DNA of 64,000 nt, taken from Candidatus Margulisiibacteriota bacterium. Its GTDB lineage: Bacteria > Margulisbacteria > Termititenacia > CAZZFK01. The stretch lies in NCBI GenBank assembly GCA_042562495.1, contig JBHPMC010000003.1:20752-84751 (forward strand), read 5' to 3'. This document shows, piece after piece, positions 7,250-49,223 of this stretch. Made by a program: the position numbers and the translations under genes. The notes below the pieces were generated by a model that was given only the letters and a program-made list of their open reading frames with translations, was not told the DNA's origin and did no database searches. How positions within the stretch are numbered: the stretch's first letter is position 1; each line of letters begins with the position of its first letter.

Positions 7250-9580
7250 ATGAAAAAAATTCCAGAAGGCATTTTTTCGATCGGGATTGGAGAGACTAAG
7301 CAGGTCAAAGTTGGGCGTGAGAAGACCTGGCGTTGGGTAAAAGGTTTCTTAGGTATACCGAAGAGAATAAAGATCAAAATGATGGATACCTATCCTCATG
7401 GTGCTCCGGTCGGTGGTTTCGGTGCAGGAACGATTGGTCGTACACCAGATGGTGATTTTTCAGTATGGCACTTAGCTACAGGGCGTCACGTTTATGAGAA
7501 TATTCCGGCCTGTCAATTCCATGTATTCCAGAAGCAGGGTAAGAAAAAAGTAGTACAGTCACTTTCCGCCAGCAAGCCCAAGGGTAGGCAATTGAGTAGC
7601 TTTAAGTGGAAATACCCCAAAGGGCAGGGTAAATATTCAGCGCTATATCCAAAATCATTCTTTGAATATAATGCAGAAAAATTACCGATGAAATTATCCT
7701 GTACGCAATTCTCTCCGATACTCCCGGATAATTATAAAGAGACCAGCTATCCCGTTGCGATATATGTCTATCGAGGGAAGAACGAGACAAAAGAACCAAT
7801 AAAATTATCCTTGATGTTGACCTGGGAGAATATCGTGGGCTGGGATGTTACTTGGCCAAAGGCCCAGCATAATTCCGAGCAATGTTACTGGATCAAAAAC
7901 GCCGGGGATACTGTTCATGAAGTGGTTGATACTAAAAAAAGCGTGAATCTGATCCTTTCTAAAAGAAAAAAAATAGAGCAATTTTGCTTGAGCGTACCTA
8001 AGGATAAAAAACATATTATCTCCTATCAAAAGGATTTTAATCCAAGAAGTTCCGGCAAGATCGTATGGAAAACTTTTTCTAAGAACGGGATCTTGAAGAA
8101 TAAAAAAGTTAGAGCTGAAAAAAAGAGAAATGCGGCTGCTCTTGCCCTTAAAACAATTGTCTTTCCTGGGGAAGAGATCGAGATCCCTTTTGTTCTGGCT
8201 TGGGATTATCCAAAGCATGAATTCAAGGATAATAAGTTCTTTTACCGTTATTACACAAAACATTTTAACGATAAGGGCCGGGGGGCTTTAAAGGTTGCCC
8301 AAGAGGGGATCAAGAATTATAAGCAGTGGGAGAGGGCAATTGATAAATGGCAAGCAGCCTATCTTAAAAATTATAAACCTTGGCTCACATCTTTTTTATT
8401 CAATGAGCTTTATTATTTGGCTGATGGTGGAGCTATTTGGGATGCTAAAACCGGAGATTTTGGATTGCTGGAATGTTACGACTACTTTTTTTACGAAACC
8501 TTGGATGTACGTTTTTACGGTTCTTTTCCGATCTTGAAATTTTGGCCGAAATTAGAAAAACAAGTGATGAGCAATTTTGCAAAAGCAGTGCTTAAAGAAG
8601 ATCCAACTTTTACGAGATTTTGGGAATATAATTGGAAGATCGATGAGCCAATCACTGAAGAGCCCAAACATGTCTATTCCGGCCCTTTAAAGGTCAAAGG
8701 AGCATGCCCCCATGATCTGGGAAGCTTGCGGGATCATCCTTTGAAGAAGATGAATTCATATGTTTGGCGCAATCCCAATCATTGGAAGGATATTAATTCT
8801 AAATTCGTGCTTTTGATCTATAGGGATTATGTTAATGGCGGTAAGGATAAAAAGTTCTTAAAAGATTCTTGGCCGGCTGTTAAAGAGGCCATGTATTTCT
8901 TGAAGAAGATGGATAAGGATGATGATGGCTTGGTCGAGAATGAAGGATTCCCTGATCAAACCTATGATAATTGGCCTATGAGCGGAGTTTCTGCATATTG
9001 TGCAACATTATGGTTGGCTGCACTGGAATCAGCTATTCAGATCGGCAGGATCCTTAAAAGGAATGCTGAAACGAAAGAGTTCAAGGCCTGGTTGAATTTA
9101 GGCAAGAAAAATCTTGAGCAAAAATTATGGAACGGGAGATACTTTAATTGTTTTGAGGGATGTAAGGATATTTTTTCTGATCAATTAGTAGGGCAGTGGT
9201 ATGCACAAAAATTAAAGTTACCAAATCTAGTAAATGCTTCAAAAATAAAAAGTTCTTTGCAGAATATCTATAAATATAATGTGCTGACTTTTGGGGCGGG
9301 CAAGATCGGTGCGGTGAATGGCCGGCAGAAAAGCGGCCTGCCTTGTGGCCATGAACAAGGAGATGATGCCTGGGTCGGTACGAATTGTTTTGTGGCAGGC
9401 TTAATGTTAACTAATGGAATGAAAAATGAAGGATGGCAGGTCTTAAAAGGCGTATATGATGTAATTTATAATAAAAAAGGGTATTATTTTAGAACACCGG
9501 AAGGCTATCGTGAGAACGGTGATTTTGTAGGGACCATGTATATGCGCCCTTTAGCGATCTGGTCTATAGTTGATATATAA
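7250..9580 (+). CDS. GH116 beta-glucosidase (GBA2-type non-lysosomal glucosylceramidase-like)
   Basis: 776 aa. The N-terminal GAPVGGFGAGTIGRTPDGDFSVWHL motif is characteristic of the GBA2 N-terminal domain, followed by a long (alpha/alpha)6-type C-terminal half. Confidence 0.75.
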   Translation: MKKIPEGIFSIGIGETKQVKVGREKTWRWVKGFLGIPKRIKIKMMDTYPHGAPVGGFGAGTIGRTPDGDFSVWHLATGRHVYENIPACQFHVFQKQGKKKVVQSLSASKPKGRQLSSFKWKYPKGQGKYSALYPKSFFEYNAEKLPMKLSCTQFSPILPDNYKETSYPVAIYVYRGKNETKEPIKLSLMLTWENIVGWDVTWPKAQHNSEQCYWIKNAGDTVHEVVDTKKSVNLILSKRKKIEQFCLSVPKDKKHIISYQKDFNPRSSGKIVWKTFSKNGILKNKKVRAEKKRNAAALALKTIVFPGEEIEIPFVLAWDYPKHEFKDNKFFYRYYTKHFNDKGRGALKVAQEGIKNYKQWERAIDKWQAAYLKNYKPWLTSFLFNELYYLADGGAIWDAKTGDFGLLECYDYFFYETLDVRFYGSFPILKFWPKLEKQVMSNFAKAVLKEDPTFTRFWEYNWKIDEPITEEPKHVYSGPLKVKGACPHDLGSLRDHPLKKMNSYVWRNPNHWKDINSKFVLLIYRDYVNGGKDKKFLKDSWPAVKEAMYFLKKMDKDDDGLVENEGFPDQTYDNWPMSGVSAYCATLWLAALESAIQIGRILKRNAETKEFKAWLNLGKKNLEQKLWNGRYFNCFEGCKDIFSDQLVGQWYAQKLKLPNLVNASKIKSSLQNIYKYNVLTFGAGKIGAVNGRQKSGLPCGHEQGDDAWVGTNCFVAGLMLTNGMKNEGWQVLKGVYDVIYNKKGYYFRTPEGYRENGDFVGTMYMRPLAIWSIVDI

Positions 9581-9589
9581 GGAGATTCT

Positions 9590-10534
9590 ATGATCACAAC
9601 AGTTACACTTAATCCGGCATTAGATATGACACTTGGTGTTAAAGCATTCAAGGCAGATGATTCCAATCGTGTGCAATGGGTACTTAAGAATCCGGGGGGC
9701 AAGGGCATAAATGTTTCTCGTGTGGTCAATGTTTTAGGCGGACTGGTGAATACAGTTGCATTTGTTGGGGGGCATGCCGGGGCACAGCTTAGAGAATTAT
9801 TAAAAGAAGAGGGTGTCATTCTTTGGGAAGTAGAAGCTTTAGAGGAAACTCGTACCAATGTTACTTTTGTCGTAGAAAAAGATAAAACTCAGACCAGGTT
9901 AAACCAAAAGGGTGCAAAAATAACACCCAAAGAATTAAAAAGTCTGTTCAATCTTATTTCCCAGGTAGGGGATAATGCGGATTTCTTAGTGATAAGCGGT
10001 TCTCTTCCACCAAATGTCAGCAAGGATACTTATCAAAAGATAATCAAATTAGTAAAGTCAAAAAGCGATAGGGTTAGGATAGTCCTTGATGCAGATGGTG
10101 AAGTATTGCAAAAAGGATTAAAAGCAAGGCCTTTTCTCGTCAAGCCAAATATTCATGAACTTGAGCGTTTGGTAAAAGATAAAATTAAGACAGAGCGAGA
10201 TATTTGTAGAGCTGCACTTAAAGTGCAAGAAATGGGAGCCGCTAATGTTATTGTCTCGAGGGGTGCCAAAGGGATCATTGCCTTAAGCGAGTATGGCGAG
10301 TATTTTAGCGCCGTTGGGCCAAAAATTAAGGTTGCTAGCACTGTTGGAGCAGGTGATTCATTTATTGCAGGTGTTATTTTTAAACTGGACCAGAAAGCAA
10401 CCTTTAAAGAAGCACTAGCCTATGGAGTCGCTGTGAGCTCAGCGATGGTAATGACGCCTGGCACAGAATTATGTAGGCCATCAGATGTTAAAAAACTGGT
10501 GCGTAAAGTAAAACTTAATACTCTAGATATCTAA
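9590..10534 (+). CDS. PfkB-family hexose-phosphate kinase (1-phosphofructokinase / tagatose-6-P kinase type)
   Basis: MITTVTLNPALDMTL N-terminus and GAGDSFIAG ATP-site motif. A GGAG RBS lies 5 nt upstream. Confidence 0.8.
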   Translation: MITTVTLNPALDMTLGVKAFKADDSNRVQWVLKNPGGKGINVSRVVNVLGGLVNTVAFVGGHAGAQLRELLKEEGVILWEVEALEETRTNVTFVVEKDKTQTRLNQKGAKITPKELKSLFNLISQVGDNADFLVISGSLPPNVSKDTYQKIIKLVKSKSDRVRIVLDADGEVLQKGLKARPFLVKPNIHELERLVKDKIKTERDICRAALKVQEMGAANVIVSRGAKGIIALSEYGEYFSAVGPKIKVASTVGAGDSFIAGVIFKLDQKATFKEALAYGVAVSSAMVMTPGTELCRPSDVKKLVRKVKLNTLDI

Positions 10535-10567
10535 TATCAGATTTCCTTTCTGTATTAATAAAAATTG

Positions 10568-10597
10568 TTGCATCTCAATTTTAAATTATGCTAAAAT
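10568..10597 (+). promoter_or_regulatory. Candidate sigma70-type promoter for the 631-aa cargo / barrel-SLH operon
   Basis: TTGCAT (10568..10573), an 18-nt spacer, then TAAAAT (10592..10597), about 105 nt upstream of the ATG. The genome is AT-rich, so a chance match is possible. Confidence 0.3.
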
Positions 10598-10702
10598 ACA
10601 CCCAACTTGGTCACTAAAGCACAGGTTGACTTAATCCCCCCATTAATTAGTCATCCATATTTATTGTGCTGTGTAGTGTAATTATTTATAAATGGGGTAG
10701 TT

Positions 10703-12598
10703 ATGTTAAAGAAGTTAAAATTCTTTCTTCTAGTTTTCCTGCTTTTAGGATTAACGATCACTCAAGTAAATGCATTTACCAATGGTGGCTATGTTGACGG
10801 ACAAACTCCTGGTGATTGCTATCTAACTTTTGGGATCAGTTCCTTTGTAAGTAGTAATACCGTTAATGTAAATACGATCCGGATAGATAGTGTTATATCA
10901 GACCGGGTCTATGTTTCAACAAATATGTCCAATATCCCGGTAAGTGTATCAGTAACCAATACCGGCGAGATCACAGCTACCTTTAATTTGAATTTGAGTA
11001 TATTTAACAGTACTTTAGGAACAGCCGCAGGTGGTTTTAATGTCGCGGGTAGTGGAACATTTACTTTAGCTCCTGGAACAACCTCAATATATTTATTTAC
11101 TGTTAATCCAGTTGGACCGCTTACGCCTACTTTCCCAGTAATAGTAGATGCAGTTGCTGCTGCGCCTGGCCCCTGGGGGCCGTTAGGCGATGATAATTGG
11201 TGGATTGCGATCGACGGTTCTTCAGTAACTGGTGCGGTCAGTCCGTGGTTGTGGGATACCAGAAATTTGCCGGCACCTATATCGATCCTGGTCACGCCAA
11301 ATATTTCTCAAGGATATAATCCAACTGAGCTGCAAGTTACTTTCAGCCGAGCTATGGATGATACAAAAGTAGCGAATTTTGATGCAGTAAGTTCTGATGG
11401 GACAGTAATGGCCTCCTTCGCAGGTAATTGGATTTCAGCTGCTACTACTTTAAGCTGGGTGGGTACGGTTGATACTACAACTTGGCCAGATGGCTTATAT
11501 CATGTCTCAGGCGATAGCGCCGTAGATTCTATGGGCATAACCATGAACCAAGATCCTTTTATTTTAGCTTACACTTTCGAAATAGACCGTTTAACGCCGA
11601 CAGTTAACTTATATCATAATCCTACTGCAAATCCGGGCTTTATTTTCCCGGTCACATTAGTTGCGGTTGATTTTGATGTAATACCTTTAGCTCCGGATCT
11701 TTGGGCGGAATTTTTATTAGATACTGGATTGACCACTTCTGTTCAAGTAACGGGCTGGGCTTCGGCAGGGGGACAAGGGATCACCTGGTCTGGAACTGTG
11801 GCGGTACCTATAAATGCTACACAGAATTCTATAGCAACGTTTAATAATCTTTCTGTTACAGATAATGCAGGATTATTTTCCAATGTTATAAATTCTGGTG
11901 CTACTTTTAATATAGGCGCAGGCGGGCCATATATTACAAATCTAACCTTTGATGGATTAGTAGTAATCAACGGGGATGTTATAGATCCTTTGCCTCAAAT
12001 ACGCTTCTTTATAGTTGATGGTGGAAGTTCTAGCGGCACACCGGGTATTGCCACAGCAAGTATTCGGATCACTATGAACGGTACATTGCTTGTTTCGGGC
12101 AATGCTTTAACTCAAGTAGGGACAACTCCATTTCGTACATATGAATGTATCTACAATATACCCAATGATCTTCCGGAAGGCACATATACTTTTGAGTTCG
12201 GGGCAAGTGATAGTGATGGTATCGCAGCGGTACCAGTTGTTGTCGTTGTGCGTGTTGTAGGAGGAGGCGTTGATCTTATACGCCAGCCTATAAACTGGAC
12301 AAATCCTTTCTCGCCAAATGGGGATGGAGTAGAAGATATTACTTATATAATTTATGAATTAACCAGATCTACTCCAGTAAGACTATATATCTTTAATATG
12401 GATGGAGAGATCGTCTGGAGAAAAGATATTGATGAAGGTCAGGAAGGTGGTCATGCCGGTTACAATGCAGTGGTTTGGGATGGATTTACTAGTTTCGGGG
12501 ATGATCTGCCTAATGGTGTATATATTGCACACGTCATCGTAAATGACAGAGGTACAAGAAAATCGCTTGGTAGGGCGAGAATAGTTATCTTGAAGTAA
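10703..12598 (+). CDS. Secreted surface protein (631 aa) with CARDB/Ig-like modules and a C-terminal FlgD-Ig/T9SS-CTD-like domain (cargo 1)
   Basis: Signal peptide MLKKLKFFLLVFLLLGLTITQVNA. Thr/Asn/Val-rich beta-sandwich-like sequence. The C-terminus carries the shared CTD. Confidence 0.75.
   Translation: MLKKLKFFLLVFLLLGLTITQVNAFTNGGYVDGQTPGDCYLTFGISSFVSSNTVNVNTIRIDSVISDRVYVSTNMSNIPVSVSVTNTGEITATFNLNLSIFNSTLGTAAGGFNVAGSGTFTLAPGTTSIYLFTVNPVGPLTPTFPVIVDAVAAAPGPWGPLGDDNWWIAIDGSSVTGAVSPWLWDTRNLPAPISILVTPNISQGYNPTELQVTFSRAMDDTKVANFDAVSSDGTVMASFAGNWISAATTLSWVGTVDTTTWPDGLYHVSGDSAVDSMGITMNQDPFILAYTFEIDRLTPTVNLYHNPTANPGFIFPVTLVAVDFDVIPLAPDLWAEFLLDTGLTTSVQVTGWASAGGQGITWSGTVAVPINATQNSIATFNNLSVTDNAGLFSNVINSGATFNIGAGGPYITNLTFDGLVVINGDVIDPLPQIRFFIVDGGSSSGTPGIATASIRITMNGTLLVSGNALTQVGTTPFRTYECIYNIPNDLPEGTYTFEFGASDSDGIAAVPVVVVVRVVGGGVDLIRQPINWTNPFSPNGDGVEDITYIIYELTRSTPVRLYIFNMDGEIVWRKDIDEGQEGGHAGYNAVVWDGFTSFGDDLPNGVYIAHVIVNDRGTRKSLGRARIVILK
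12287..12595 (+). other. CTD copy 1 (FlgD-Ig / T9SS type-A CTD-like sorting domain)
   Basis: PINWTNPFSPNGDGVEDITYIIYEL...VRLYIFNMDGEIVW...GYNAVVWDG...PNGVYIAHVIV...RARIVILK*. Confidence 0.65.
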
Positions 12599-12632
12599 GG
12601 TTATACCTGTGTGTTGGGGGGACAGGGTAAGA

Positions 12633-15509
12633 ATGAATAAGCGTTTCTTATTATTGCTCATTTTAGTGGGGGTACTATTGCTACCTGCTTTGGCTACAGC
12701 TGAAGTTGGTGCGAGTGATCCTTCCAGATTAAGCGTTGGTGCGCGACCATTAGGCATGGGCCGTATGTTCATTCCTGTAGCCAATGATGCCAGCGCAGTA
12801 TTTATGAATCCCGCAGGTATGCCTCAAGCAAAAGAACTCCAATTCATGACCATGGGGTCGCAAGTTGTCTGGGCAGTAGATTATCAGACCATAGGTTTTG
12901 TTCTGCCCGTTGGGAAATGGGGTGCTTTAGGTTTAGGTTATGCCGGTCGTAATGTTCCGGATATTGCTTTGTTTTCTGCTTCGGCTTCGATCAATAACCG
13001 CGTAGATAGAAGAGCAGCTGATTATGGATCATTCTCTGACAGTGCCTTATTGCTGAGTTGGGCCAGGCGTTTTGACCTATTCGGGCTAAAACGCGTAGGC
13101 TTGGGAGGAAGTTTTAAGTTCTTTCAGAAAAACGGGACCGGGTCATCAGCATTAGATGATGCTAATGCCACAGGTACTAATTTGGATCTGGGTGTGCATT
13201 GGAATTGGAAAGATGATATTAATTTTGCTTTCACAGGGCAAAATGTGTTGCGGCCATCAGATAAATCCGGGACCGGTGTCCTGATCTGGGATACAGGTGA
13301 GCGAGAGTATTTTGATTCTATATATAAGGTAGGCGTGAGCAATAGGTTTTTTGAGCGCAGAGTACTGGCCGGTATAGAATATGAAAAGAACGGAAGCCAG
13401 CCTAATTATCCCGGCATCGGTCATATAGGTGTAGAGTGGCATCCAATAAATTCTTTATATGTACGAGGTGGTATAGATCAGGCATTTGCTATGCCCGATG
13501 TGGATGCTAATTCTCGATACGATATGCATAATAATGTAACTTTAGGTCTGGGCTTATTGGTTTCTGGATGGCGATTTGATTATGCCTACCATTTATTAAA
13601 TGACATTCCGAATTTAACTACACACTTTATATCTATTTCACTTGTTGGTGATGATGAGCTGGCGCCTATGGAGCCTCCGGAAGTTGAGGTGGCAGTAACC
13701 TCAGATATTCTGGAAGTGTTTACGCCAGAAGACAAGACCATCACGCACTCTTCCTCAATTCTTATTTCAGGAAGAGTTAGGGATCGCCAGAACGTGCGTA
13801 TCAATGGTGAAGATTTCCCTGTGGATGAAGAAGGTGGTTTTGCCACTATCGGTCAATTAGGTATCGGCAGAAATGATGTTATCGTTTCTGTTGAAAAATA
13901 TCCGGTTAAGATCTTAAGAAGGGTATTGCGCTTAGCTTCATTTGTTGATGTGACAAAACAACCGTATAAAGATCCGATCGAATATTTAGCTACGCTTGGT
14001 TTTGTTGGAGAAGATTATGATGGCTTCTTTAAGCCCGATCGTTATGTGACCCGGCAAGAAGCGGCCAGTATGCTGGTCAAAATGCGTAATATTTCCTTGC
14101 CTGTCACAATGCGTGGGATCTGGGAAGATATTGATCTTGCTGCCAGCCAGGGCTTGATCGTTGGTTTCCCTGATGGTTTGTTCCGACCAGCAGAAAAATT
14201 GACCAGAGCTCAATTGGCAGTTATTTTGGCGCGTTTTGAGAACTTGCCGCTACCAAGTAAGACCACGTTGCCTTTAGCCCAAAGATATCTTGCTCAAGAG
14301 CACTGGGCTGCAGGGGCCGTGCAAGCTTTAGTGAATACTGGCTTATACAATTCAGAGGAGTTCAGCCCGCTATCCGGTCCGGTCACTAAGCAGGAATTGG
14401 TAATGGCGTTTTATAAGACCAGTTATGTCCAACGCAGAGTGAATAATATGCTCAATTTCATTGATGAACCGATCACGCCGACCATTCCTAAGAGGGCCAA
14501 TTTATTTATGCGCATATCACAGCCGGTCGATAGTGATGAAAAGCAGATATTTGAGCAGATCATGACCGGGAAGAAAGTGGTAGTGGAAGAGACGGTCGTT
14601 GAATCAGTCGGGAAGTTGACGCCTGAAGCCCCAGCATCAGATATAGATATTTATCAAATGATCGTTGCTAAGAAGGCGATCACCGATGTTGCAAAAGGTT
14701 CTGTAAAAGCACCACTGATGACCTTAATAAAGCCTATCGATAAAACAATAACTTATAAAAATATTGTTGTGGCCCAGGGTTCGGTGAAGAATGCTTCAAA
14801 ATTGTTGATCGATAATCAATCCATATACTTAAAACCTGGCGGTAAGTTCTATAAGAAAATCAAATTAAGTAAATTCGGGAAAAGAAAAATAGAGTTTAAG
14901 GCTACGAATAAAAGCGGAGGAACCTTGAGGAAAACGGTCAGAGTGCTTTATCTGCCAACAGTTAATGATATTGTCGAAGGTTCTTATAAAAAGACTGTTT
15001 CAGGCTTGGTTGCCTTAGGGTATTTAAAATTGGACAGTAAGAATAATTATGATCCTGCCAAGGATATGACCAGGGGGGAGTGGGCCTCTCTTCTATTTAA
15101 AGCCAAAGGGCTTGCACCTGTTGTCCTAAAATATAAAGATGTGCCGGCAACTTATCCATATGCCAAGAGGGTCGGCGCTGTAGCTAAAGCAGGTTATCTG
15201 CCTCCGGTTAGCCCGACACTCTATAAACCAAATGATCCATTAAGCCGAGCACGGGCCGGGATCAGTTTGGCTAAGCTGGAAGGATTAAAAGTGGAACAAT
15301 ATGCAGGTAAGACCGGGTTTAGTGATGTTTCAGTCAAACAGGATTATGCTAAATATTTAGCAGCTGCTAAAGCAGCAGGTATTCTCAAAGGTGAAACCTA
15401 TAAACCAATGAATAATTTAACCAAATTATCGGCCGCGCAACTTATTGCTGGGACTTCAAAAACAAGACAAAAACTGGCCGATCTATATGATTGGAATAAA
15501 GGTTACTAG
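12633..15509 (+). CDS. FadL/PorV-like OM beta-barrel fused to two triplets of SLH domains (barrel 1)
   Basis: Start chosen at MNKRFLLLLILVGVLLLPALATA (the track GTG at 12609 adds 8 aa). Hatch motif VGARPLGMGRMFIPVANDASAVFMNPAGM. The barrel ends with HFISISL (~13645) followed by an acidic linker. SLH-like repeats include FVDVTKQPYKDPIEYLATLGFVG...VTRQEAASMLVKM, WEDIDLAASQGLIVGFPDGLFRPAEKLTRAQLAVILAR and FSDVSVKQDYAKYLAAAKAAGILKG, among others (~13941..14430 and ~14962..15470). Confidence 0.7.
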   Translation: MNKRFLLLLILVGVLLLPALATAEVGASDPSRLSVGARPLGMGRMFIPVANDASAVFMNPAGMPQAKELQFMTMGSQVVWAVDYQTIGFVLPVGKWGALGLGYAGRNVPDIALFSASASINNRVDRRAADYGSFSDSALLLSWARRFDLFGLKRVGLGGSFKFFQKNGTGSSALDDANATGTNLDLGVHWNWKDDINFAFTGQNVLRPSDKSGTGVLIWDTGEREYFDSIYKVGVSNRFFERRVLAGIEYEKNGSQPNYPGIGHIGVEWHPINSLYVRGGIDQAFAMPDVDANSRYDMHNNVTLGLGLLVSGWRFDYAYHLLNDIPNLTTHFISISLVGDDELAPMEPPEVEVAVTSDILEVFTPEDKTITHSSSILISGRVRDRQNVRINGEDFPVDEEGGFATIGQLGIGRNDVIVSVEKYPVKILRRVLRLASFVDVTKQPYKDPIEYLATLGFVGEDYDGFFKPDRYVTRQEAASMLVKMRNISLPVTMRGIWEDIDLAASQGLIVGFPDGLFRPAEKLTRAQLAVILARFENLPLPSKTTLPLAQRYLAQEHWAAGAVQALVNTGLYNSEEFSPLSGPVTKQELVMAFYKTSYVQRRVNNMLNFIDEPITPTIPKRANLFMRISQPVDSDEKQIFEQIMTGKKVVVEETVVESVGKLTPEAPASDIDIYQMIVAKKAITDVAKGSVKAPLMTLIKPIDKTITYKNIVVAQGSVKNASKLLIDNQSIYLKPGGKFYKKIKLSKFGKRKIEFKATNKSGGTLRKTVRVLYLPTVNDIVEGSYKKTVSGLVALGYLKLDSKNNYDPAKDMTRGEWASLLFKAKGLAPVVLKYKDVPATYPYAKRVGAVAKAGYLPPVSPTLYKPNDPLSRARAGISLAKLEGLKVEQYAGKTGFSDVSVKQDYAKYLAAAKAAGILKGETYKPMNNLTKLSAAQLIAGTSKTRQKLADLYDWNKGY

Positions 15510-16868
15510 TTATTTGCGGATAACTTTTTTGACCACAGATTTTTCACTACCGTTATAAACAACTCTGGCTTTAAAGAAATAGGTCCCTTTGGGCAGCTCA
15601 GCTTTGAGTTTCCAATCAAAAACTGCAGTATAGGTTTTGTTGGGTTCCAGGGAGACTTTTTTAGCTGAGAAAACCTTAAGTGGTTGCTTCTGATCATCAT
15701 AGATGCTCAAAGCACACTTAATATCTGTAGTTACTTCTCCAGTGTTCTCGAACACAACCTCAGTCTTTACCAAGCCATTGATCTTCTTAACGGTCATCTT
15801 ATTGATGGCAGCATCTTTTTTAAATTCTAATAAAGGTATTTCCTCAACATCAGCTGAAGCAACTTTGAGCTCACCAGGGCTTACCTCTCTTGGCTTTTCT
15901 GCCTCATCGATCTTCTGCTCTTCTTCTAATGGTTCGATGAGATCTTCTTGTTCTTCAAGAAGATAACTAAGGGATAGGAAATGCTTATTATCAACGACTT
16001 CACCTACTGGTTCTGTAGCAAAAGTATAATGCAGCCCGAATTTTTCATAAGCCAGGCTGGTGCCTAAGAATAGGCGCTCCTGATCGTAACCGGCACGGAA
16101 GGTCAGATACTTATTGAAAATAAAACGGCCACCGACCTTTAGCCCCAATCCGCGATCACTGCGCGAATTAACATCAACTGCGAGCAGGAATTGTCTGGTT
16201 ATTTTATGTGATACTCCGATGATGATATTGAACGGTATGGTTTCTATAAGATCGCTATCCGTATCCCAGGCAAGCTGGGGCGGAGTAATATTTTGATAGA
16301 CCAGACCAAGCTGGGTCCGAGAATTCAATCTATAAAATAAACCGGCATCAAATCCTGTGCCTGAAGCGCCGTTATCATAAAGCGATTCCTGGATGTATTT
16401 AAAGTTCAGACCAACTGCTAATTTCTTATCCAGTGCTTTAGCCGCTGAGAAGACGTAGGCATTGCCTTGATAACTAAAGCTCTTGCCAGTTAAGCTTCCT
16501 GCCCCATTTTGATAGGTAGCTTCTTTGATACCATCTACGCGAGTATTTAAAATATTCACTCCAAGAGCGATATCCCAGATCCTTGGATCACGTAACCGGT
16601 TATAGCCTAACTGGAGATAATCAACATCGCCTAAGATCGTCCCCTGCATAGAATTTACTTCGCTACGATTTACATAAGCCAGTACAGCAGGATTCCAATA
16701 ACCCACAGTTCCGTCCTCTGCAAAGGCCACCACTGCAGCGCCCATGCCCAGGGATCGGGCACCCACAGGTCTCATTATAAATGAGCCTGCAGAGGTTGCG
16801 TCTGCAGTGGTAGACCACTGTCCGAGGAGCAGTGTTATTAAAATTAAAATACTAAACAGTTTTCGCAT
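15510..16868 (-). CDS. FadL/PorV-like OM beta-barrel with C-terminal CARDB/CTD-like Ig domain (barrel 2, partner of the 4178-aa protein)
   Basis: Signal peptide MRKLFSILILITLLLGQWSTTADA. Hatch motif VGARSLGMGAAVVAFAEDGTVGYWNPAVL. The barrel ends with KHFLSLSY followed by a Glu-rich linker. Its AGGAG RBS overlaps the stop of the upstream giant gene (9-nt gap). Confidence 0.7.
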   Translation of the reverse strand: MRKLFSILILITLLLGQWSTTADATSAGSFIMRPVGARSLGMGAAVVAFAEDGTVGYWNPAVLAYVNRSEVNSMQGTILGDVDYLQLGYNRLRDPRIWDIALGVNILNTRVDGIKEATYQNGAGSLTGKSFSYQGNAYVFSAAKALDKKLAVGLNFKYIQESLYDNGASGTGFDAGLFYRLNSRTQLGLVYQNITPPQLAWDTDSDLIETIPFNIIIGVSHKITRQFLLAVDVNSRSDRGLGLKVGGRFIFNKYLTFRAGYDQERLFLGTSLAYEKFGLHYTFATEPVGEVVDNKHFLSLSYLLEEQEDLIEPLEEEQKIDEAEKPREVSPGELKVASADVEEIPLLEFKKDAAINKMTVKKINGLVKTEVVFENTGEVTTDIKCALSIYDDQKQPLKVFSAKKVSLEPNKTYTAVFDWKLKAELPKGTYFFKARVVYNGSEKSVVKKVIRK

Positions 16869-16877: not shown

Positions 16878-19800
16878 CTATTTCAGTACGGCGATCTTGA
16901 CCCGCTTAACTTTGCGGTTCTCGCCATCTGTTGCAACGATGTAGGCGACATATACTCCGTTGGCCAGGATCTCGCCCCACTGATCCTTGCCATCCCACGC
17001 TATCTCTCCGGAACTGGAATTTACATCTTCTTCGGTCTCCCATATTTTTTGACCACTGATGTCATAAACATAGATCTTGATGTTGGCCTCGTTCCTATTT
17101 ATGTTGTACATGAAATGGATAGAATCGTTATGTAAATTGACCGGATTTGGCGCAACAAAAGTTTGTAAAGCACTTAAGGAAGATTGTACGTTCAAGCCAA
17201 CAACGGCGAACTTGGAGAAATGAGTTGTACTGAATACAAGAGTAGTACCATCAAAACTAATAATGGTTATGCCATCGTTACTCCAACTACTTGTACTGGT
17301 ATTGTAATAATAAATACTGATCTGATTGGCCGGATAATTGAAGCTCATACCTAAGTTCAGGGTTACGATAACCGGATTGGCGAATTGTGGATCTGTAACA
17401 GGATTTAATGCCCCATCCAGCAATTCTAGATAGAACGGAAGTAAAAAGGACATTGCTTCAGTATCGTTCTCTGTCGGCGCCAAGTTGAAGCTAACGTAGG
17501 CCTCATAAGCTACTGCGCCTACTGGTAAAGTTATGTCAGCTGTGACATTTACAGAAGGATCGCCACTGATGAATTGAAATACTTTCTCTACTGTTAACAC
17601 AACTTGGCTGGCAGAAGTAGGGCTGAGATTACCGGCATTGTCGATACAGGTGGCATTGATAGTATTGTAGCCAGGAGATCTCAGGGCAACTTGCAAGGAG
17701 AAGCTTCCTGTAGTGCTGACCGGGCTGGAACCAAGCAATCGTCCGTTATTATAGATGCGTACTGTAGCGCCGGCCTCGGCCGAACCGCTGATTTTGAATA
17801 TACCAATGTTAGTTGTAGCCGGGGCCAGAGGCACTGGCAAACTGGATAATACTGGTGCAGCAGGAGGATAAGTATCCGTTTCGGTGCTGAAGGAGTAGTT
17901 GAGATTAGTAATATTTGGCGGATTACCATAATCTGCTGTTTGTGCTGCGACCTGTACAGTATCGTTATAGTTGAAAGTCTGGGCAGGTGTGAATGTAATA
18001 TTGTAGGTAATAGGTCCTCCAGAGATCACAGTTCCGCCGGCAACAGGAATGCCACCTACGCTGACAGTAACGCCTATTAGTCCTGTTTGGATACCTGTTT
18101 CGTTATCATAGGTTTGCAGAACGATGGTCGTATTTGTAGAGACATTCGTTGCTCCAGAAAGCGGTGAAAGAGCAGAGAGAAAAGGATCGCCATTGTCCTG
18201 GCCGGAAATGAAATTATATTCATCGACCACTGCATTGCCGCTTATATCTGTTGCATTAATAGTTACATATATCGTACTTAAGATGCCGAAATCAGTATCG
18301 TGAGTGAAAGATGCATCGTAGGTTGGGCCACTGCCGACAATATTTAAGACAAGATCACCGGTGATAATCCCCTGGCCGCTGTCCAGAACCTCAATTGTTA
18401 CGGAATCAACTGATACTCCGGTTTCAAGATCAACGATTGAGAAATTGACCGGTGCATCCTGAGCCCCGGCTCCTGATTTTTGCGGATTATGCCCGAATAT
18501 TGTAGGTGACGTTAGATCTTGTTCGGTTATAAAATAGAAATTATCGGTGACCAGATTATCTCTAAGGTCTTTTGCTGATATTGTGACCACCACGGTCTCG
18601 AAATAACCGAGTTCAGGTGTATAAGATACTGTATACTGACCGGCATTGCCGTTTATGTTGAGAGAAGCGCTGACATCAACATTATTGACCTCTAGTATTA
18701 TCGAATCGAGAGAGACGCCGCTTTCTATATCCGTAAGAGTGAAAGACATGTTGGTATCCTGAGCAACATTTGTTGTATCTCTGGTAGGTATTAAGCTGGA
18801 AATGACTGGAGCGTTGGTATCATCTATGGTCTGAAAACTATAAGAGATGCTACCAGGATTACCACCAATGTCTTCAGCGTTAACAGTTAGGTCGATGGTT
18901 TCCAGATATCCAAAATCGTTGGTAACTAATGTAGCAGTATAGCTATTCATGTTGCCGGTGATATCCATGGACGCTGAAAGATCTATACCAGCAACCAATA
19001 TCTGTATGGTATCCAAACTTACGCCTGTTTCAGAATCAGATATGATTAAGCTGATAGGAGTTGTCGGGGAGACACTAGTTGCTCCATTGGTCGGCGATAG
19101 AGAGCTGAATTGAGGAGCTGTCGAATCAGCGTGGATAGTAAATCCATAACTTATGCTTCCCGGATTATCCAAGAGATCATATGCTGAAGCAGTAACAGCT
19201 ACTGTTTCTCCGTAACCAAAATCAACACTTGGTGTATAGCTTACTTGGTAACTACTGGTAGTTCCTGAAATGCTTAGCTCATTGGTTACTTCAAGCTCTT
19301 GGACCCAGAGCCTTATAGAATCTTGGGATACACCGCTGCCGCTATCCTCAATAGTAATGTTTATTGAAGGATTTAAGGTAACATCAACTGCACCAGCTAA
19401 AGGATCTAGGCTATTAAAGGTCGGTGGTGTTGATTCAGGTGGCGCCTGGCCGATTCCGAAGCTGTAGGTCACTGTCTGGCTGTTGGCGGAGACATCCTCA
19501 ACATTGATGGTCACTGGTACAACAGAATTATAATTAAAGGTCGTGACCGGGTTATAAGTGACCAGATAATCACTGCCGGACAAGGTGATCTGGTCAGGGA
19601 CTACTGCTTGAGAGTCCACTTCTAGTTGTAAGGTATCGATGCTGACCCCGGATAATGTGTCGGAGATACGGAAAGCGATAGGCGTATCATTCACATTGCC
19701 CGTGCTATTTTGTGCAGGATATATGTCGCTTATTTCAGGAGGGAAATTATCATCAGCTATCTTTTCATAAGCTCCCATATCATATTGCGCCGTAGCGCCT

Positions 19801-22800
19801 GCTGAGACAAAGCGACCTAATTGAGGTCTGGTTATGCCCAGAATATCAGCTGCGGGTATATAGCTGCCTACAGACGTGCCTGTTTCAATAGCCAAAGAAT
19901 CTGGTTGAAGTTGGAAATCATAATTTGGTGTAGAGATAAATTTTGGATCAGAGGTTATTACACCTTCTTCAGATCCAGCCCAATTTTCAATGTCACTGTA
20001 TTTTAAGTTTAGGCTAAATTGATTGCTGATCTGTGGATTTGTAGCTGCAGTATTTCCCCAGAAAATATTATTGCGTAGAGTTGCGGAATTGTTATTATAA
20101 AGTCCACCGCCATCACTGGATCCACCTGGACAAGTGTTCTCAGAGAAAGTATTGTTATTAAGATATAAGATATCGTTGTTATATATACCTGCGCCTTGGC
20201 CGGTATTATTTAAGGCTTTATTCTCAGCAAAGATACAATTTATAATTCTGGCAGTCTGATTATTGTGATATATTGCGCCTCCTTTGCTGCCGAAGTTGTA
20301 TTGACTTTCATTACCGATAAAAACAGCTTTTTCTAGATCCAGAGCATTATCACTGTATATAGCTCCACCATAGTTATTAGCAGTATTATCAGTGAAATGT
20401 CCGCCGTTTATGTATATTCCACTTGATGTGTTGTATATAGCACCGCCATGACTGTTAGTGCTCTTATTCCCGATAAAATCGGTGTTTTGAATTGTTCCAG
20501 TACCATTTTCTTTATAAATAGCACCGCCATAATTGACAGCAGTATTATCATTGAACAGACTATCTACAATATATAATGCTATTCCTTCTCCATAAGCGTA
20601 GATGCCACCTCCATAATAACTCGAACTAATATTGCTGCTTACTATCACATTGTTCAGGGTCAGGGCCGAATTATCCGCCAAATAGATACCGCCTCCTTCA
20701 TTTACATTATTGCCGTTCTGGATGGTCAAATCTTCAATCGTAAGGGCTGTTCCATTGCTACCATTAAATGTACCAACGATTATTACGCGGTCATTGTTCT
20801 GCGCATCTATAATTACACTGCTAGATGCTGCCGGAGATATTCCTTTTAAGGTCAAATTCAAAGGTTTAGTAGGCCAGGTTATTTTAGTGGTCAGCTGGTA
20901 ATTGCCGGTCACAGCGATAGCAACTCCATTTGTAACATTATTATCGGAAAGATAATTCAAAGCATTTTGAATAGAATTGAAAGGATTAGCATAGCTTCCG
21001 CCGCCGCCGGCAGCAGCATTGGCACTTACATATACGGTGGAGAGCGCCCCTTGGGTAAAGAAACTATAGTCATCTATATAGGTTGTATTGCCTAAGCTGT
21101 CCTCAATATGGATAAGAACATTTACCGTAGTTTCTGGCGGATATGCAGTATCTGGATCAAGGATTACCGTGTAATCATTAATAGTTCCGCTATAGGTAAC
21201 GGCGCTGCTTAGCTCTGTATAGACAGTACCATTAATAGATATGATCAAAGAGGCAATATCAATCCCTGGATCGTCATCTCGGATCTTTAAGGTTATAGGC
21301 TCATCGGCGGGAACGTTCTGTGAATTATTCAGTGGATCAAAACTATAGATCATAGGTGCTTGGTATTCATAAGCTCCGATATCGTATTGATCACCTTGTG
21401 GTCGGGCTTGACCATTAATATCTATAGAGATATTTGATGTAGTTCCTTGATCGATCAGAGGTGAACTATGCATCAAGGAATAATCTAAACCAGCGTTAAC
21501 GAACTTTGGGTCGACCGAAATATTACCGAGGCCAGCATAGCCGCTCTCAATATCAGAATATTGGACTAATATAGTAGCTATATTGTTTATTTGAGAAGTG
21601 TTATCCCAAATAATTGTATTTAGCACATTAGCAGAGGCATTGTTATAAATTCCCGTTGAATTATCAGCTAAGACAACTTGGCTGATATATGTTTCACCGG
21701 ATAGATTTGAGATACCAATCCCATTATGAACAACCAGGCTGTTCTGTATCATAAAAGTGCCGTTATTAGAAACGCCTGAAGTACTGTTGCCGGAGATCAG
21801 CAATTGTTCTGCTTGTAATATTGCGCCACTTTGGACCTGTATACCAGTGCTGCCACCAGTGATAGTTAGGCCGTAGATATTTGCCGAAACAGTTTGTGCC
21901 AGATCAATGGCTAATCCATTGTTGCCATTGAGGATAACAGCTGTATAAGCATTTGGAGTATTGCCTTTTAGTGTTACTCCTTGTTTATTTGGCCAATTAA
22001 TATTTTCTGTATATGTTCCGCTTAAGACAGATACTGTGCCGTTTTCTTTAACAATGTCCAAGCCTTTTTGGATAGTAGCAAAAGGTAGTGCCATTGTTCC
22101 TTTTCCAGTAGTATCGTTGCCTCCGGTCGAGATGTATACATCTTCAGGCGCTATTATGGTGAAAGAAAGGATATCCTGTCTGCCCGCTCCGTTTTGGTCT
22201 GTAACATCAGTTGTAGCCACATAGGTCTTGCCTTTATCAAGATCGACCGCTGGGGTAATTGATATCAAAATATTTGCCGTGGTCGCTCCGCTTAGATCAG
22301 TGTAGTTAAAAGTATTTGAACCTGAAGCTTTATAAACCAGGCTATTAAAATTTATTGTTACTAAATTAATATCTACAGTTGAGGAGTTATCCACGATCCG
22401 CAGATAGACAGGCGTTGTAGCTGGAATATCTATGCCCGCCTTATCCGGCACATGGTCTATTACATATATAGAACGATATTCAAAGATACCCATATCAGGC
22501 AGGTTGTATTGAGGTCTTTCATGCCCGGCATTGTCTGTATCAGCCAGCGCAAGGATATTATCTGTCCCGCTTTCTATAGCGGGAGAATCGACAAGTAAGC
22601 TATAGTCCCCACTTGCTTCGTTAGTAAATTTCGGATCAGCGCTAACATTTCCAATGCCTGTTGAAGCTCCAGGGAAAATGCTGTAATTGATATTTACTAA
22701 GCCAGCGGGCATATTATTCGAGAAGATGGAATTAGTTATATCATTGTTGCTTCCCGAGATCGCAATGCCTCCGGCATTATTGCTGACAAAGACACAGTGT

Positions 22801-37056: not shown

Positions 37057-38016
37057 ATGAAGAAGAGTTTAGCTATATTGCTAACTCTCCTCTTGTTTGT
37101 TCAACAAGGATGGGGGGCGCTAAAGATCACTGGGGATAGTTCACCAGCAGATATTTCCCGTGTGGGTATCGGCGCCAGACAATTAGCCATGGGCCGGGTA
37201 AGTGTGGGTACTGCAGATGATGCCGGCGGCTGGCTATTAAATCCGGCCGGCTTGGCGGGGATCCGGGCCCCGGAAGTGAATACCATGATGACCAAGCTTG
37301 TTGGGGAGTTTAATTATTATTTCCTTTCCTATGTACAGCCTGCCAAGCAGGATACCTTTGGTGTTAGTTTATTACATGAAAATCCCGGATCTATTCCTCG
37401 CGTAGATAGCTTGGATGTCAATGGTTATCCAGTTGATTCAGGAGATACGATAGCTGCTGGAAGCACTTTGTTATCTGTAGGTTACGGTCGAAAGTGGTCC
37501 AAGAACTTGTATCTGGGAGTGGCGGTCAAACATTTCGTGCAATATTTAGATAATGCACACGGCACCAGTACCGGAGCAGATGTTGGCTTGATCTGGGGCA
37601 CACCTATAAAAGATCTGTCGGTAGGCGCGACTGTGGTAAATGCAGCACAGCAAGGTATTCGCTGGGACACAACGGACAGTACTTTGTATAATCTGCCAAC
37701 ATATTTAAGAGTTGGGCTAGCCTGGGAAGTGCTCAATAAACGTTTGACCTTAGCTATCGATGATGAGATCGGTAATTTTAATCGTTTGAACTTGGGAGCA
37801 GAATACTGGTTCAATAAAAATTTCGCGCTCAGGATGGGGACCTACGGAGAGATCCTTACTTTAGGAGTTGGGCTGCGTCACGGATTTTTTGAATTAGATT
37901 ATGCGTATTCCTATGAGCAGGGGCCAATAACTCAAACAGCTTTTGTTTCGTTGACTTTTGGCAATGCTAGACAAAGTGAGCTGGAACAACCAGAGATATA
38001 TATATTGGAGGAATAA
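37057..38016 (+). CDS. FadL/PorV-like OM beta-barrel, barrel only (barrel 3)
   Basis: 319 aa. Signal peptide MKKSLAILLTLLLFVQQGWG. Hatch motif IGARQLAMGRVSVGTADDAGGWLLNPAGL. Terminal strand AFVSLTF followed by a short acidic tail. Lies 7 nt after the 1864-aa gene. Confidence 0.7.
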   Translation: MKKSLAILLTLLLFVQQGWGALKITGDSSPADISRVGIGARQLAMGRVSVGTADDAGGWLLNPAGLAGIRAPEVNTMMTKLVGEFNYYFLSYVQPAKQDTFGVSLLHENPGSIPRVDSLDVNGYPVDSGDTIAAGSTLLSVGYGRKWSKNLYLGVAVKHFVQYLDNAHGTSTGADVGLIWGTPIKDLSVGATVVNAAQQGIRWDTTDSTLYNLPTYLRVGLAWEVLNKRLTLAIDDEIGNFNRLNLGAEYWFNKNFALRMGTYGEILTLGVGLRHGFFELDYAYSYEQGPITQTAFVSLTFGNARQSELEQPEIYILEE

Positions 38017-38017
38017 T

Positions 38018-49204: not shown

Positions 49205-49223
49205 ATTCCATTCATACTGAACA

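Follow-up and report, generated by a model that had tools for sequence, protein, structure and literature searches.

How the outer membrane is linked to the cell wall is a central question in current ideas on the evolution of diderm and monoderm envelopes. The gene at positions 12633..15509 of the DNA analysed here (the target) raises the question of whether a barrel of the PorV/FadL class that carries SLH repeats at its C-terminal end provides such a link, and what the barrel itself may hold. The gene lies in a 64,000-nucleotide stretch from Candidatus Margulisiibacteriota (the whole stretch is called the window below); Margulisbacteria are a sister phylum of Cyanobacteria. The original prediction had described this fusion and read it as an inverted OmpM-style tether of new architecture. 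Overall, its observation is confirmed and its interpretation partly supported: we consider it fairly probable that the target is a docking barrel on which CTD proteins are held, that it is anchored to the wall and that it also tethers the outer membrane to peptidoglycan, a reading that depends on the orientation, the SLH ligand binding and the CTD docking that we infer below.

From N- to C-terminus, the target comprises a signal peptide, a 14-stranded PorV/FadL-like barrel, an acidic linker, an Ig-like domain, an SLH triplet, a second Ig-like domain and a second SLH triplet (Table 1). We take the ATG at 12633 as start codon in preference to the GTG at 12609, because a G-rich stretch resembling a ribosome-binding site lies upstream and a Sec-type signal peptide stands at the opening; family members resemble the target in their N-termini. 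The AlphaFold (AF2) model has a mean pLDDT of 84.3, and in Foldseek the protein retrieves PorV, FadL and the SLH domain of B. anthracis Sap as its best PDB matches. The predicted order of barrel, acidic linker, Ig-like segment and two SLH sets is thus borne out by Pfam, NCBIfam and AF2, with coordinates right to within a few codons. NCBI files an identical protein under Candidatus Margulisiibacteriota.

Table 1. Features of the target gene and of its surroundings in the window.
Feature	Position	Strand	Description and evidence
Cargo 1	10703..12598	+	631-aa secreted protein; CHU_C 35.5 bits (cutoff 27), FlgD_ig 20.3 bits
Cargo 1 CTD	12281..12595	+	C-terminal ~105 aa
Target ORF	12609 (GTG) or 12633 (ATG)..15509	+	958 aa counted from ATG
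Signal peptide	12633..12701	+	MNKRFLLLLILVGVLLLPALATA; Sec type, A-x-A site, not lipoprotein; read from sequence
Barrel	12705..13652	+	aa ~25-340; PorV/PorQ/FadL class, 14 strands; PorV_fam, AF2, Foldseek
Linker	13653..13709	+	aa 341-359; acidic, Pro/Glu-rich, flexible; pLDDT <50 at aa 345-353
Ig-like spacer 1	13710..13931	+	aa 360-433; beta-sandwich, Glucodextran_B-like
SLH triplet 1	13938..14468	+	aa 436 to about 612-622; Pfam SLH 67.9 bits
Ig-like spacer 2	14712..14945	+	aa 694-771; Glucodextran_B 24.9 bits, under cutoff 27
SLH triplet 2	14961..15509 (incl. stop codon)	+	aa 777-958; Pfam SLH 59.1 bits, 3 stretches
Barrel 2	15510..16868	-	452 aa; PorV/PorQ-family barrel, acidic linker, C-terminal Ig-like domain; PorV_fam 90.6 bits (cutoff 90)
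Cargo 2	16878..29414	-	4178-aa surface protein; Big_5 repeats, beta-helix regions, Big_6, C-terminal CTD (Pfam, CTD alignment)
Cargo 3	31455..37049	+	1864-aa Ig-repeat protein, C-terminal CTD; Big_7, FlgD_ig; CTD HMM E 2e-40
Barrel 3	37057..38016	+	319 aa; unfused PorV/PorQ-family barrel; PorV_fam 111.6 bits (cutoff 90)
Free SLH protein	38018..40474	+	secreted; Pfam SLH 131.4 bits, Glucodextran_B 38.8 bits
Cargo 4	40474..41163	+	229 aa, C-terminal CTD; Por_Secre_tail 23.2 and FlgD_ig 18.7 bits, both sub-cutoff; CTD HMM E 5e-44
Barrel 4	41182..44505	+	1107 aa; PorV_fam 60.6 bits, E 1.9e-16
LpxB	55041..56177		diderm marker of the host

The NCBIfam profile PorV_fam (NF033709) aligns aa 33-336 of the target with profile positions 9-323 of 326 (E 5.8e-14), i.e. 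over nearly the whole profile, at a score of 52.4 bits that lies below the curated cutoff of 90; the PorVQ2 profile matches at E 2.3e-17. AF2 places 14 long strands at aa 70-337, as in the 14-stranded barrels of the FadL superfamily, and in Foldseek the barrel retrieves PorV on top (8gl6_F, 6h3i_F), followed by FadL and TodX, with the porins OmpG, OmpK35 and that of R. blastica ranking below PorV and FadL. Ahead of strand 1, model and sequence display an N-terminal segment of ~45 residues that includes a conserved GARPLGMG motif and takes the position of the hatch in FadL. Profile, strand count and fold search all uphold the FadL/PorV-like, 14-stranded barrel of the original prediction. With PorV/PorQ the target shares the 14-stranded barrel, PorV as best structural match and a gene position beside T9SS-like CTD genes; it differs in its host, a Margulisiibacteriota, in its sub-cutoff score and in its size, since the matched PorV chains are barrel-sized (345-367 aa) whereas the target has 600 aa of Ig and SLH domains beyond the barrel. 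To our knowledge, PorV has no C-terminal extension comparable to this one.

The rank of FadL and TodX near PorV in the fold search, together with a weak Pfam match to Toluene_X in barrel 2 (next to other weak ones to PorV and Big_14), could point to a FadL-type uptake channel for hydrophobic compounds, whose SLH tail would only fix its position and whose link to cargo genes would be coincidental. We regard this as very unlikely: both profiles favour PorV/PorQ over FadL, the Pfam scan gave no Toluene_X match in the target, and the conserved adjacency of CTD genes described below would be left without explanation.

Beyond the barrel and its linker, spacer 1 is matched by Glucodextran_B (Pfam, 47.2 bits in two stretches, the best at aa 360-420) and its strands at aa 360-433 are modelled with pLDDT >90, while spacer 2 aligns with the Ig domain of barrel 4. 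Scoring the repeats with the Pfam SLH profile (PF00395, gathering cutoff 20.8 bits), a check proposed with the original prediction, gave 106.2 bits for the whole target (E 7.7e-31, well outside what chance would yield), and each triplet also exceeds the cutoff when scanned separately (Table 1). Triplet 1 aligns end to end, through all three repeats, with the B. anthracis Sap SLH domain (3pyw/6bt4; phmmer, E 4e-6), finds the same structures in Foldseek (TMt 0.71 for 3pyw, 0.65 for 6bt4) and is modelled as helices at aa 446-607 with pLDDT mostly >90, which corresponds to the three-repeat SLH fold of Sap or SpaA. For triplet 2, an HMM built on the SLH triplet of the family matches aa 786-964 in the numbering of the GTG-start ORF. 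At the position of the conserved ligand-binding motif TRAE, the target reads TRQE/TRAQ/TKQE in triplet 1 and TRGE/SRAR/TKLS in triplet 2, so that Arg is retained in two of the three repeats of each; the family consensus has TRAE in the first and third repeats and xRAE in the second, and the motifs of the target copy appear degenerate.

On which side of the outer membrane these domains lie can be addressed from the barrel model, in which loops of 16, 9, 26, 8 and 12 residues alternate with short turns (2, 2, 4, 2 and 2; range 2-5). Given the even number of strands and this alternation of long loops and short turns, the C-terminus falls on the short-turn side, which in such barrels is by convention the periplasmic side. 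From this strand and loop logic and from the nature of the fused domains, we infer that the Ig/SLH extension probably faces the periplasm; strand count and loop pattern of the model in this way support the side that had been predicted. Variants bearing LysM also count in favour of a periplasmic tail: one to three of these peptidoglycan-binding repeats follow the SLH triplet in 4 of the ~145 family representatives listed and at one further locus (L048), with LysM reaching 124.5 bits in the family member P0110.

The order of N-terminal barrel, linker and Ig-like domains is also that of intimin and invasin, further Ig or beta-sandwich modules typical of surface proteins are found on barrels 4 and 2, and a free SLH/Ig protein is co-encoded; the Ig/SLH region might accordingly be exported to the surface, where the SLH modules would attach to a glycan or, jointly with the free SLH protein, arrange an S-layer. 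This appears highly improbable. Inverse autotransporters (type Ve, IAT) have a 12-stranded barrel and a C-terminal passenger that is threaded to the surface, whereas the barrel of the target has 14 PorV/FadL strands and an N-terminal hatch-like segment, and no inverse-autotransporter family was matched in the Pfam scans. The ligands of SLH and LysM are wall polymers, which in diderms lie beneath the outer membrane, and the published diderm SLH domains compared recognise a wall-linked polymer or modified peptidoglycan, or have been proposed to be periplasmic.

What a barrel so oriented may hold is suggested by its gene neighbourhood. Cargo 1 is encoded 34 nt upstream of the target and ends in a T9SS-like CTD of the FlgD_ig/CHU_C type, which aligns with the three other cargo tails in the window. 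Modelled with AF2, this CTD is a beta-sandwich and comes closest in fold to the FlgD Ig-like domain; in the fold search, PorU and PorZ appear only as whole entries, at E ~1e-3. All four barrels of the window lie directly downstream of a CTD gene; barrel 2, which carries no SLH and is convergent with the target, follows the giant cargo 2. Across the family, upstream sequence could be inspected for 64 long-linker fusion genes; in 42 of them, the adjacent same-strand upstream gene ends in a CTD, at distances of -112 to +62 nt. Among 40 CTDs, profile matches were obtained to FlgD_ig (29), Por_Secre_tail (14) and CHU_C (12). The extracellular loops of PorV bind CTDs (PMC10994853), and gene adjacency together with this family analogy suggests that the CTD docks on the barrel. 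Pfam and NCBIfam scans of the window ORFs returned none of the T9SS translocon (SprA/Sov), PorKLMN, PorU sortase or motor genes; published abstracts call T9SS unique to or specific for Bacteroidetes/Bacteroidota.

The same counts bear on an alternative in which the target is purely an outer membrane-wall tether or structural outer-membrane protein, its barrel a mere membrane anchor and the CTD adjacency a reflection of shared envelope regulation. The upstream CTD gene is missing in 22 of the 64 long-linker genes and in all nine short-linker paralogues, proteins of 548-591 aa with 29-34 aa separating barrel and SLH. In the six short-linker loci with ORFs listed, the upstream side holds a divergent ORF of ~594 aa, the neighbours at locus L074 are lepA, a radical-SAM/HemN-like gene, hrcA, grpE and dnaK, and this gene context suggests that the short-linker form is a single-copy core envelope gene. 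We nevertheless find a pure tether unlikely, in view of the 42 long-linker genes that do abut a CTD gene and of several of the other 22 that are the second gene in a tandem barrel-SLH pair behind a cargo gene. The unfused barrels of the window are likewise paired with cargo, and the family of the target barrel is the only one with known CTD binding.

The target is best explained as an outer-membrane protein of a Margulisiibacteriota-specific family. This family counts at least 150 representatives at 50% identity, each scoring >450 bits; the best 80 of its 219 genomic relatives come almost all from Margulisiibacteriota, Saganbacteria or WOR-1, with up to five family loci per genome among these 80. 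As to the ligand pathway, PS_pyruv_trans (PF04230, CsaB) had no match among the scanned window ORFs of at least 150 aa, and published tables list CsaB in Margulisbacteria GWF2_35_9, in Termititenax and in several WOR-1/Saganbacteria genomes, and also in WOR-1 RIFOXYB2_FULL_42_35, a genome with the fusion OGC23703.1. For the latter genome, the main tether survey (Witwinowski et al.), which counted OmpM, OmpA, Pal and Lpp, has a separate OmpM entry (OGC24325.1); OGC23703.1, a homologue of the target, entered only as an SLH protein, in the SLH list and absent from the OmpM column. With a separate OmpM in the phylum, the fusion would therefore be an additional wall link and not a replacement tether. 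No description of a PorV-SLH protein was found in the literature searched.

The target is not a member of OmpM, in which an N-terminal SLH and a stalk precede a C-terminal porin barrel: here, the barrel is N-terminal, SLH is C-terminal and the fold is PorV/FadL. Like OmpM/Slp/SlpA, it joins SLH to an outer-membrane beta-barrel in a Terrabacteria diderm, belongs to a phylum with CsaB and is expected to link outer membrane and wall; unlike them, it has the reversed order and a monomeric PorV/FadL-type barrel rather than a porin. In OmpM, each protomer of a trimer contributes a single SLH, whereas one target chain carries complete three-repeat SLH modules, with an Ig-like spacer where OmpM has a coiled-coil stalk. 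The domain order is inverted with respect to OmpM, but the target is no inverted OmpM in evolutionary terms: its barrel and the OmpM porin are unrelated.

OmpA consists of an 8-stranded barrel, a flexible linker and a periplasmic OmpA_C peptidoglycan-binding domain. The target has the same succession of barrel, flexible linker and a wall-binding domain predicted to be periplasmic, but with 14 strands and SLH (and LysM in some family members), and no homology with OmpA was detected in Pfam and NCBIfam profile scans. In the Veillonella trimeric autotransporters Vpar_0041, 0100 and 1664, a C-terminal SLH follows a YadA barrel; this SLH has been proposed to lie in the periplasm with peptidoglycan as its ligand, and the architecture was reported to be restricted to Negativicutes (PMC5491611). 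These adhesins resemble the target in having an outer-membrane barrel followed by SLH, and they anchor a surface adhesin to the wall across the outer membrane, as the target would do for its surface protein; there, adhesin and barrel form one polypeptide with a trimeric YadA anchor, whereas the surface protein of the target is separately encoded and presumed to be held via its CTD. The order of barrel then wall binder is not new, being already found in OmpA and in the Veillonella autotransporters. By analogy, the target resembles OmpM or OmpA in its presumed function while belonging to neither family.

For the wall-anchored docking barrel that we favour, a monomeric 14-stranded barrel of the PorV/PorQ type would reside in the outer membrane, and its C-terminal extension, with acidic linker, Ig-like spacer, single-chain three-repeat SLH and a second Ig and SLH unit, would reach into the periplasm. 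This extension would be bound to the wall, most likely to a pyruvylated secondary cell-wall polymer, made with CsaB, on peptidoglycan, while the extracellular loops would grip the T9SS-like CTD of the surface protein encoded immediately upstream, as PorV/PorQ do in Bacteroidota. Each cargo-barrel pair would then be a trans-envelope chain from surface protein through barrel to wall, and the many pairs per genome would provide tethers in addition to the OmpM that is on record for the phylum. More tentatively, and as a proposal that we doubt more than we trust, Margulisiibacteria might use a surface display independent of a T9SS sortase, in which large CTD proteins stay docked for good on dedicated PorV/PorQ-like barrels; a periplasmic SLH module, in some cases with LysM added, would secure each barrel to peptidoglycan.

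A third SLH-based architecture, multi-copy across the phylum, would enlarge the known set of Terrabacteria wall tethers, and PorV/CTD-type modules would here occur outside Bacteroidota, the sole phylum named for T9SS in the abstracts surveyed. The fusion would point to a simple route by which a diderm could attach large surface proteins to its wall across the outer membrane. Were sortase-free display to hold true, it would give a diderm an outer surface layer anchored in the wall, and would join PorV/CTD of Bacteroidota with SLH/CsaB of Terrabacteria, two systems regarded as belonging to separate halves of the bacterial tree. Concrete sets of cargo CTD, barrel and SLH are now at hand for structural and binding work.

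Variants of this arrangement are present within the window itself. Barrel 3 is directly followed by the free SLH protein, whose prediction proved right (Table 1): a signal peptide (from ~38018) precedes Big_13, Big_12 and Glucodextran_B Ig domains, an SLH triplet, ~200 uncharacterised aa and a second SLH region, and the protein aligns with aa 360-608 of the target (E 2e-23) and with its second SLH set. Because the C-terminal 600 aa of the target are laid out in the same way, barrel 3 and the free SLH protein look like a split form of the fusion. The pair recalls Omp-alpha/Omp-beta of Thermotogae, in which SLH and barrel are also split, with a different barrel family and gene order.

In barrel 4, a PorV-like barrel and an Ig domain precede a degenerate SLH triplet (aa ~460-596), beyond which ~500 aa hold beta-rich repeats and a Pro/Ala/Val/Lys-rich spacer; its alignment with the target (30% identity, E 2e-78) covers aa 20-594. 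Its SLH-like region, at 17.2 and 18.4 bits, falls below the Pfam cutoff and is matched by the family-specific SLH-triplet HMM; judged by these alignments, it is homologous to that of the target despite the sub-threshold score. The same barrel with degenerate SLH-like repeats, as had been predicted, is thus found here, although the repeats fail the Pfam threshold. At its C-terminal end, the target reads LADLYDWNKGY, and a near-identical LADLLDWNKGY closes the homologue at locus L035.

The reading frame of the target, the first PorV/FadL-like barrel with SLH repeats in the window (958 aa), starts at 12609 (GTG) or 12633 (ATG) and ends at 15509 on the + strand. Of the two, the ATG at 12633 was chosen: a G-rich, RBS-like stretch precedes it, the stop of the upstream gene is 34 nt away, and translation from there begins with a Sec-type signal peptide (MNKRFLLLLILVGVLLLPALATA). 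Pfam scans of the whole protein returned SLH (106.2 bits, E 7.7e-31, five stretches), the Ig-like sandwich Glucodextran_B (47.2 bits, two stretches) and weak matches to TraF_2 and UPF0164. Scanned as separate segments, aa 436-622 and aa 777-958 scored 67.9 and 59.1 bits for SLH, the latter in three stretches, and aa 694-771 scored 24.9 bits for Glucodextran_B, slightly below its cutoff. With NCBIfam, the barrel matched PorVQ2 (E 2.3e-17) and PorV_fam (E 5.8e-14; aa 33-336 on profile positions 9-323 of 326), both under the curated cutoffs. The scans thus recover the layout of the original prediction (barrel, acidic linker, Ig, three SLH, Ig, three SLH), and both repeat triplets, first described as SLH-like, are SLH by profile score. 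A protein identical to the target is present in NCBI.

We then modeled target aa 1-620 with AlphaFold2 from a family alignment of 43 sequences (mean pLDDT 84.3), which agrees with the 14 strands initially assumed for the barrel (see the table below). In Foldseek searches against the PDB, PorV ranked first (8gl6_F and 6h3i_F, T9SS translocon structures), followed by FadL and TodX; reading the barrel as a FadL-like transporter was rejected as the main explanation. The barrel alone had no match in the PDB at the sequence level, so that its PDB link to PorV/FadL comes by fold search only, and the target belongs to PorV/PorQ by structure while falling short of the curated score cutoff. The tail resembles the SLH domain of B. 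anthracis Sap (3pyw, TMt 0.71; also 6bt4, in which Sap SLH is complexed with a pyruvylated polymer unit), and sequence comparison aligns all three repeats of the first SLH triplet with Sap (E 4e-6).

Features of the target, of the window and of related loci
Feature	Position	Strand	Length	Basis or context
Cargo 1	10703..12598	+		CTD match
Target barrel	12633..15509	+	958 aa	barrel match; paired with cargo 1
Barrel 2	15510..16868	-	452 aa	barrel match; paired with cargo 2
Cargo 2	16878..29414	-	4178 aa	CTD match
Cargo 3	31455..37049	+		CTD match
Barrel 3	37057..38016	+	319 aa	barrel match; paired with cargo 3
Cargo 4	40474..41163	+		CTD match
Barrel 4	41182..44505	+		barrel match; paired with cargo 4
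ORF without Pfam match	48353..49204		283 aa	low-GC stretch
ORF without Pfam match	49224..51701	-	825 aa	low-GC stretch
Barrel, 14 long strands	target aa 70-337			AlphaFold2 model
Linker, low confidence	target aa 345-353			AlphaFold2 model
Beta-sandwich	target aa 360-433			AlphaFold2 model
Helical module	target aa 446-607			AlphaFold2 model
Short-linker loci	L046, L054, L059, L065, L067, L068, L069, L074, L075 (e.g. L074 5926..7689)			barrel-then-SLH genes

In the model, the strand connections alternate between loops of 3, 16, 9, 26, 8, 12 and 5 residues on one face and turns of 5, 2, 2, 4, 2 and 2 residues on the other. The short-turn face of outer-membrane barrels is periplasmic and, the strand number being even, the C-terminus of the target is predicted to exit on that face. 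The opposite reading, in which the C-terminal tail is surface-exposed as in an inverse autotransporter, would have the tail thread back through the barrel. However, about 45 residues with an invariant GARPLGMG motif lie ahead of strand 1, in a position like that of the FadL hatch, and a lumen plugged in this way would make such threading unlikely; this reading was also rejected as the main explanation. One to three LysM repeats are found C-terminal to the SLH triplet in four family proteins from the profile search (P0110, with 124.5 bits, P0116, P0134 and P0144) and at the related locus L048, and from their sequence these are predicted to be a second, independent peptidoglycan-binding module within the same extension as SLH. 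The loop pattern, the hatch-like segment and the LysM variants all favour a periplasmic location of the modeled C-terminal extension. In the four proteins and in L048 (5932..8547), the LysM repeats are set apart by Glu/Lys/Pro-rich spacers.

A first protein search gave about 44 clusters of 540-670 aa combining barrel and SLH, and when 1.84 billion representatives were searched exhaustively with a profile, at least 150 proteins scored over 450 bits, most of them across the whole profile. The family consensus consists of a signal peptide, a ~330-aa barrel and three canonical SLH repeats, and members are named "SLH domain-containing protein" or "PorV/PorQ family protein" at NCBI. Scanning one genome per species yielded 219 relatives; nearly all of the best 80, with up to five loci per genome, carry the label Margulisiibacteriota, Saganbacteria or WOR-1, and the others read "uncultured bacterium" or "bacterium", with one Dehalococcoidia. 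The barrel-SLH fusion thus belongs to a large and lineage-restricted family, and a second search with the family alignment added no further fused proteins or taxa among the 8000 candidates compared. The target ends in LADLYDWNKGY (15474..15506) and the fusion at the related locus L035, a homologue only ~28% identical, in LADLLDWNKGY (3204..3236).

All four PorV-like barrels in the window directly follow a gene for a protein, hereafter the cargo, that has a ~100-aa C-terminal domain (CTD) common to the four. We ran HMMs of CTD, barrel and SLH triplet on the ORFs of 79 related loci and identified 83 barrel-then-SLH genes in two groups. In the long-linker group (n = 74), the spacer from barrel to SLH is Ig-sized (87-153 aa). 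For 64 of these genes the upstream sequence exceeds 400 nt; in 42 of the 64, the adjoining upstream gene on the same strand ends in the CTD (gaps of -112 to +62 nt, cargo lengths of 293-1987 aa), and several more come second in a tandem barrel-SLH pair that follows a cargo gene. The rival reading of the fusion as a pure tether draws on the short-linker group (n = 9, each from a different genome; spacer of 29-34 aa, 548-591 aa in total), beside which the HMM search found a CTD gene in none of the nine cases. A ~594-aa ORF lies divergently upstream in the six short-linker loci with ORFs listed (L054, L059, L067, L069, L074 and L075), and the neighbours scanned in L074 are lepA, a radical-SAM/HemN-like gene, hrcA, grpE and dnaK. 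This short-linker paralogue near lepA is the best candidate for a plain, cargo-free tether, and may be the core one. A simple promoter and terminator scan around the operon in the window performed no better than on shuffled sequence. The genes for GH116 beta-glucosidase, PfkB kinase, CTD cargo and barrel-SLH (7250..15509) recur in this order in the MAG locus L001 (255..8871), with ORF sizes kept, the first two ORFs being paired by size alone, and with a fusion protein that shares 57-65% identity with the target; conservation extends to the downstream convergent barrel and CTD protein.

Scanning 40 CTDs at E ≤ 0.01 gave matches to FlgD_ig (29/40), Por_Secre_tail (14/40) and CHU_C (12/40), and the tail of cargo 1 is above the CHU_C cutoff (35.5 and 39 bits versus 27). 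A CTD model is a beta-sandwich whose closest fold is the FlgD Ig-like domain, with PorU and PorZ entries at E ~1e-3; as it was built on four sequences only (pLDDT 76), these fold matches are just moderately informative. A protein database search with the cargo CTD alone returned nothing, only four candidates having passed the word prefilter. In Flavobacterium, the extracellular loops of PorV are bound by the CTD (PMC10994853). From gene adjacency and this family analogy, we infer that the CTD could dock on the adjoining barrel. Cargo 2 contains many Big_5 Ig domains and several right-handed beta-helix blocks ahead of its CTD, and has another CTD HMM match at aa 816-852.

The best-supported reading of the target is a wall-anchored docking barrel, in which orientation, binding of the ligand and docking of the cargo are inferred. 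In the outer membrane, a PorV/PorQ-type barrel would grip the CTD of the co-encoded surface protein on the outside, and the same barrel would be fixed on the inside to the wall polymer by a single-chain SLH module past a flexible linker and an Ig spacer; the many cargo-barrel pairs per genome would then add outer membrane-wall tethers beside OmpM, the SLH-porin tether. A monomeric barrel and a three-repeat SLH module on one chain fit each other, whereas in OmpM the SLH module is assembled from three protomers. OmpM has the opposite domain order and another barrel class, and as neither agrees the target lies outside the OmpM family. The reversed order is itself precedented, since OmpA follows the same logic, a barrel and then a periplasmic wall binder, and so do the Veillonella trimeric autotransporters whose YadA anchor is followed by a C-terminal SLH (PMC5491611). 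The literature searched contains no paper on PorV together with an SLH domain, nor one on type IX secretion in Margulisbacteria. The fusion is of real interest to students of envelope evolution.

SLH ligands need the pyruvyl transferase CsaB, and Pfam found no PS_pyruv_trans match in the ORFs scanned from the window. In the supplementary table of Witwinowski et al (bioRxiv 10.1101/2021.05.31.446380), CsaB is given for Margulisbacteria GWF2_35_9 (OGI09408.1), Termititenax persephonae (GBR76307.1) and several WOR-1/Saganbacteria genomes. For WOR-1 RIFOXYB2_FULL_42_35, the same source gives OGC24325.1 as OmpM and OGC24502.1 as CsaB, and has OGC23703.1 in the SLH column only, absent from the OmpM column. 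By exact-sequence look-up, OGC23703.1 is the L035 fusion (MEUC01000025.1 1368..3236), so that one genome has the fusion, the OmpM entry and CsaB together. We considered whether the OmpM entries listed for the phylum are these fusions and rejected it for the one genome cross-referenced, where the two are different proteins; the fusion thus adds to OmpM and does not replace it. Although the definition of OmpM in that preprint takes any SLH protein with a predicted beta-barrel and ignores domain order, the fusion went uncounted there as a tether. Over the 83 triplets, the SLH consensus reads TRAE in the first and third repeats and xRAE in the second; the target motifs are divergent (TRQE/TRAQ/TKQE in set 1, TRGE/SRAR/TKLS in set 2), and repeat 2 of set 1 is without about ten N-terminal positions.

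The other barrels of the window differ in what follows them. Barrel 3 is unfused, and within two bases of its stop (38016) begins a separately secreted protein (38018..40474), in which three Ig domains are followed by an SLH triplet and, past an unknown region, by a second SLH region. The free SLH protein of the original prediction is thus found directly after barrel 3, with its own secretion signal and two SLH regions. This protein is laid out like the last 600 aa of the target, so that the pair (37057..40474) looks, from gene and domain order, like the fusion in split (fission) form, in the way of Omp-alpha/Omp-beta versus OmpM. Barrel 2 has an acidic linker and an Ig-like domain alone C-terminal to the barrel. 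Barrel 4 is homologous to the target (aligned over target aa 20-594, E 2e-78), its SLH motifs are more degraded (TRRQ and TRGK, the third absent) and its SLH-like region is below the Pfam cutoff, in line with the degenerate repeats first noticed there. Its extra C-terminus consists of ~500 aa of beta-rich repeats with no Pfam match (42970..44505) and a Pro/Ala/Val/Lys-rich spacer (PVSAPAVQPLAKVKVPIVPVVPVIKPAVKAAPVK...); by eye, about four ~100-aa repeats with a W-x-G ... Y-I-x-D-x-x-G pattern can be discerned.

Further downstream, an envelope-lipid gene cluster (52081..56177) encodes an LPG_synthase_C-domain protein, an ABC-2 transporter pair and LpxB (55041..56177), consistent with a lipid-A-containing outer membrane. 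At 48-52 kb, past an XerC/D-type tyrosine recombinase (46677..47564), GC is low (0.36-0.38), and the region 46677..51701 may be an acquired element.
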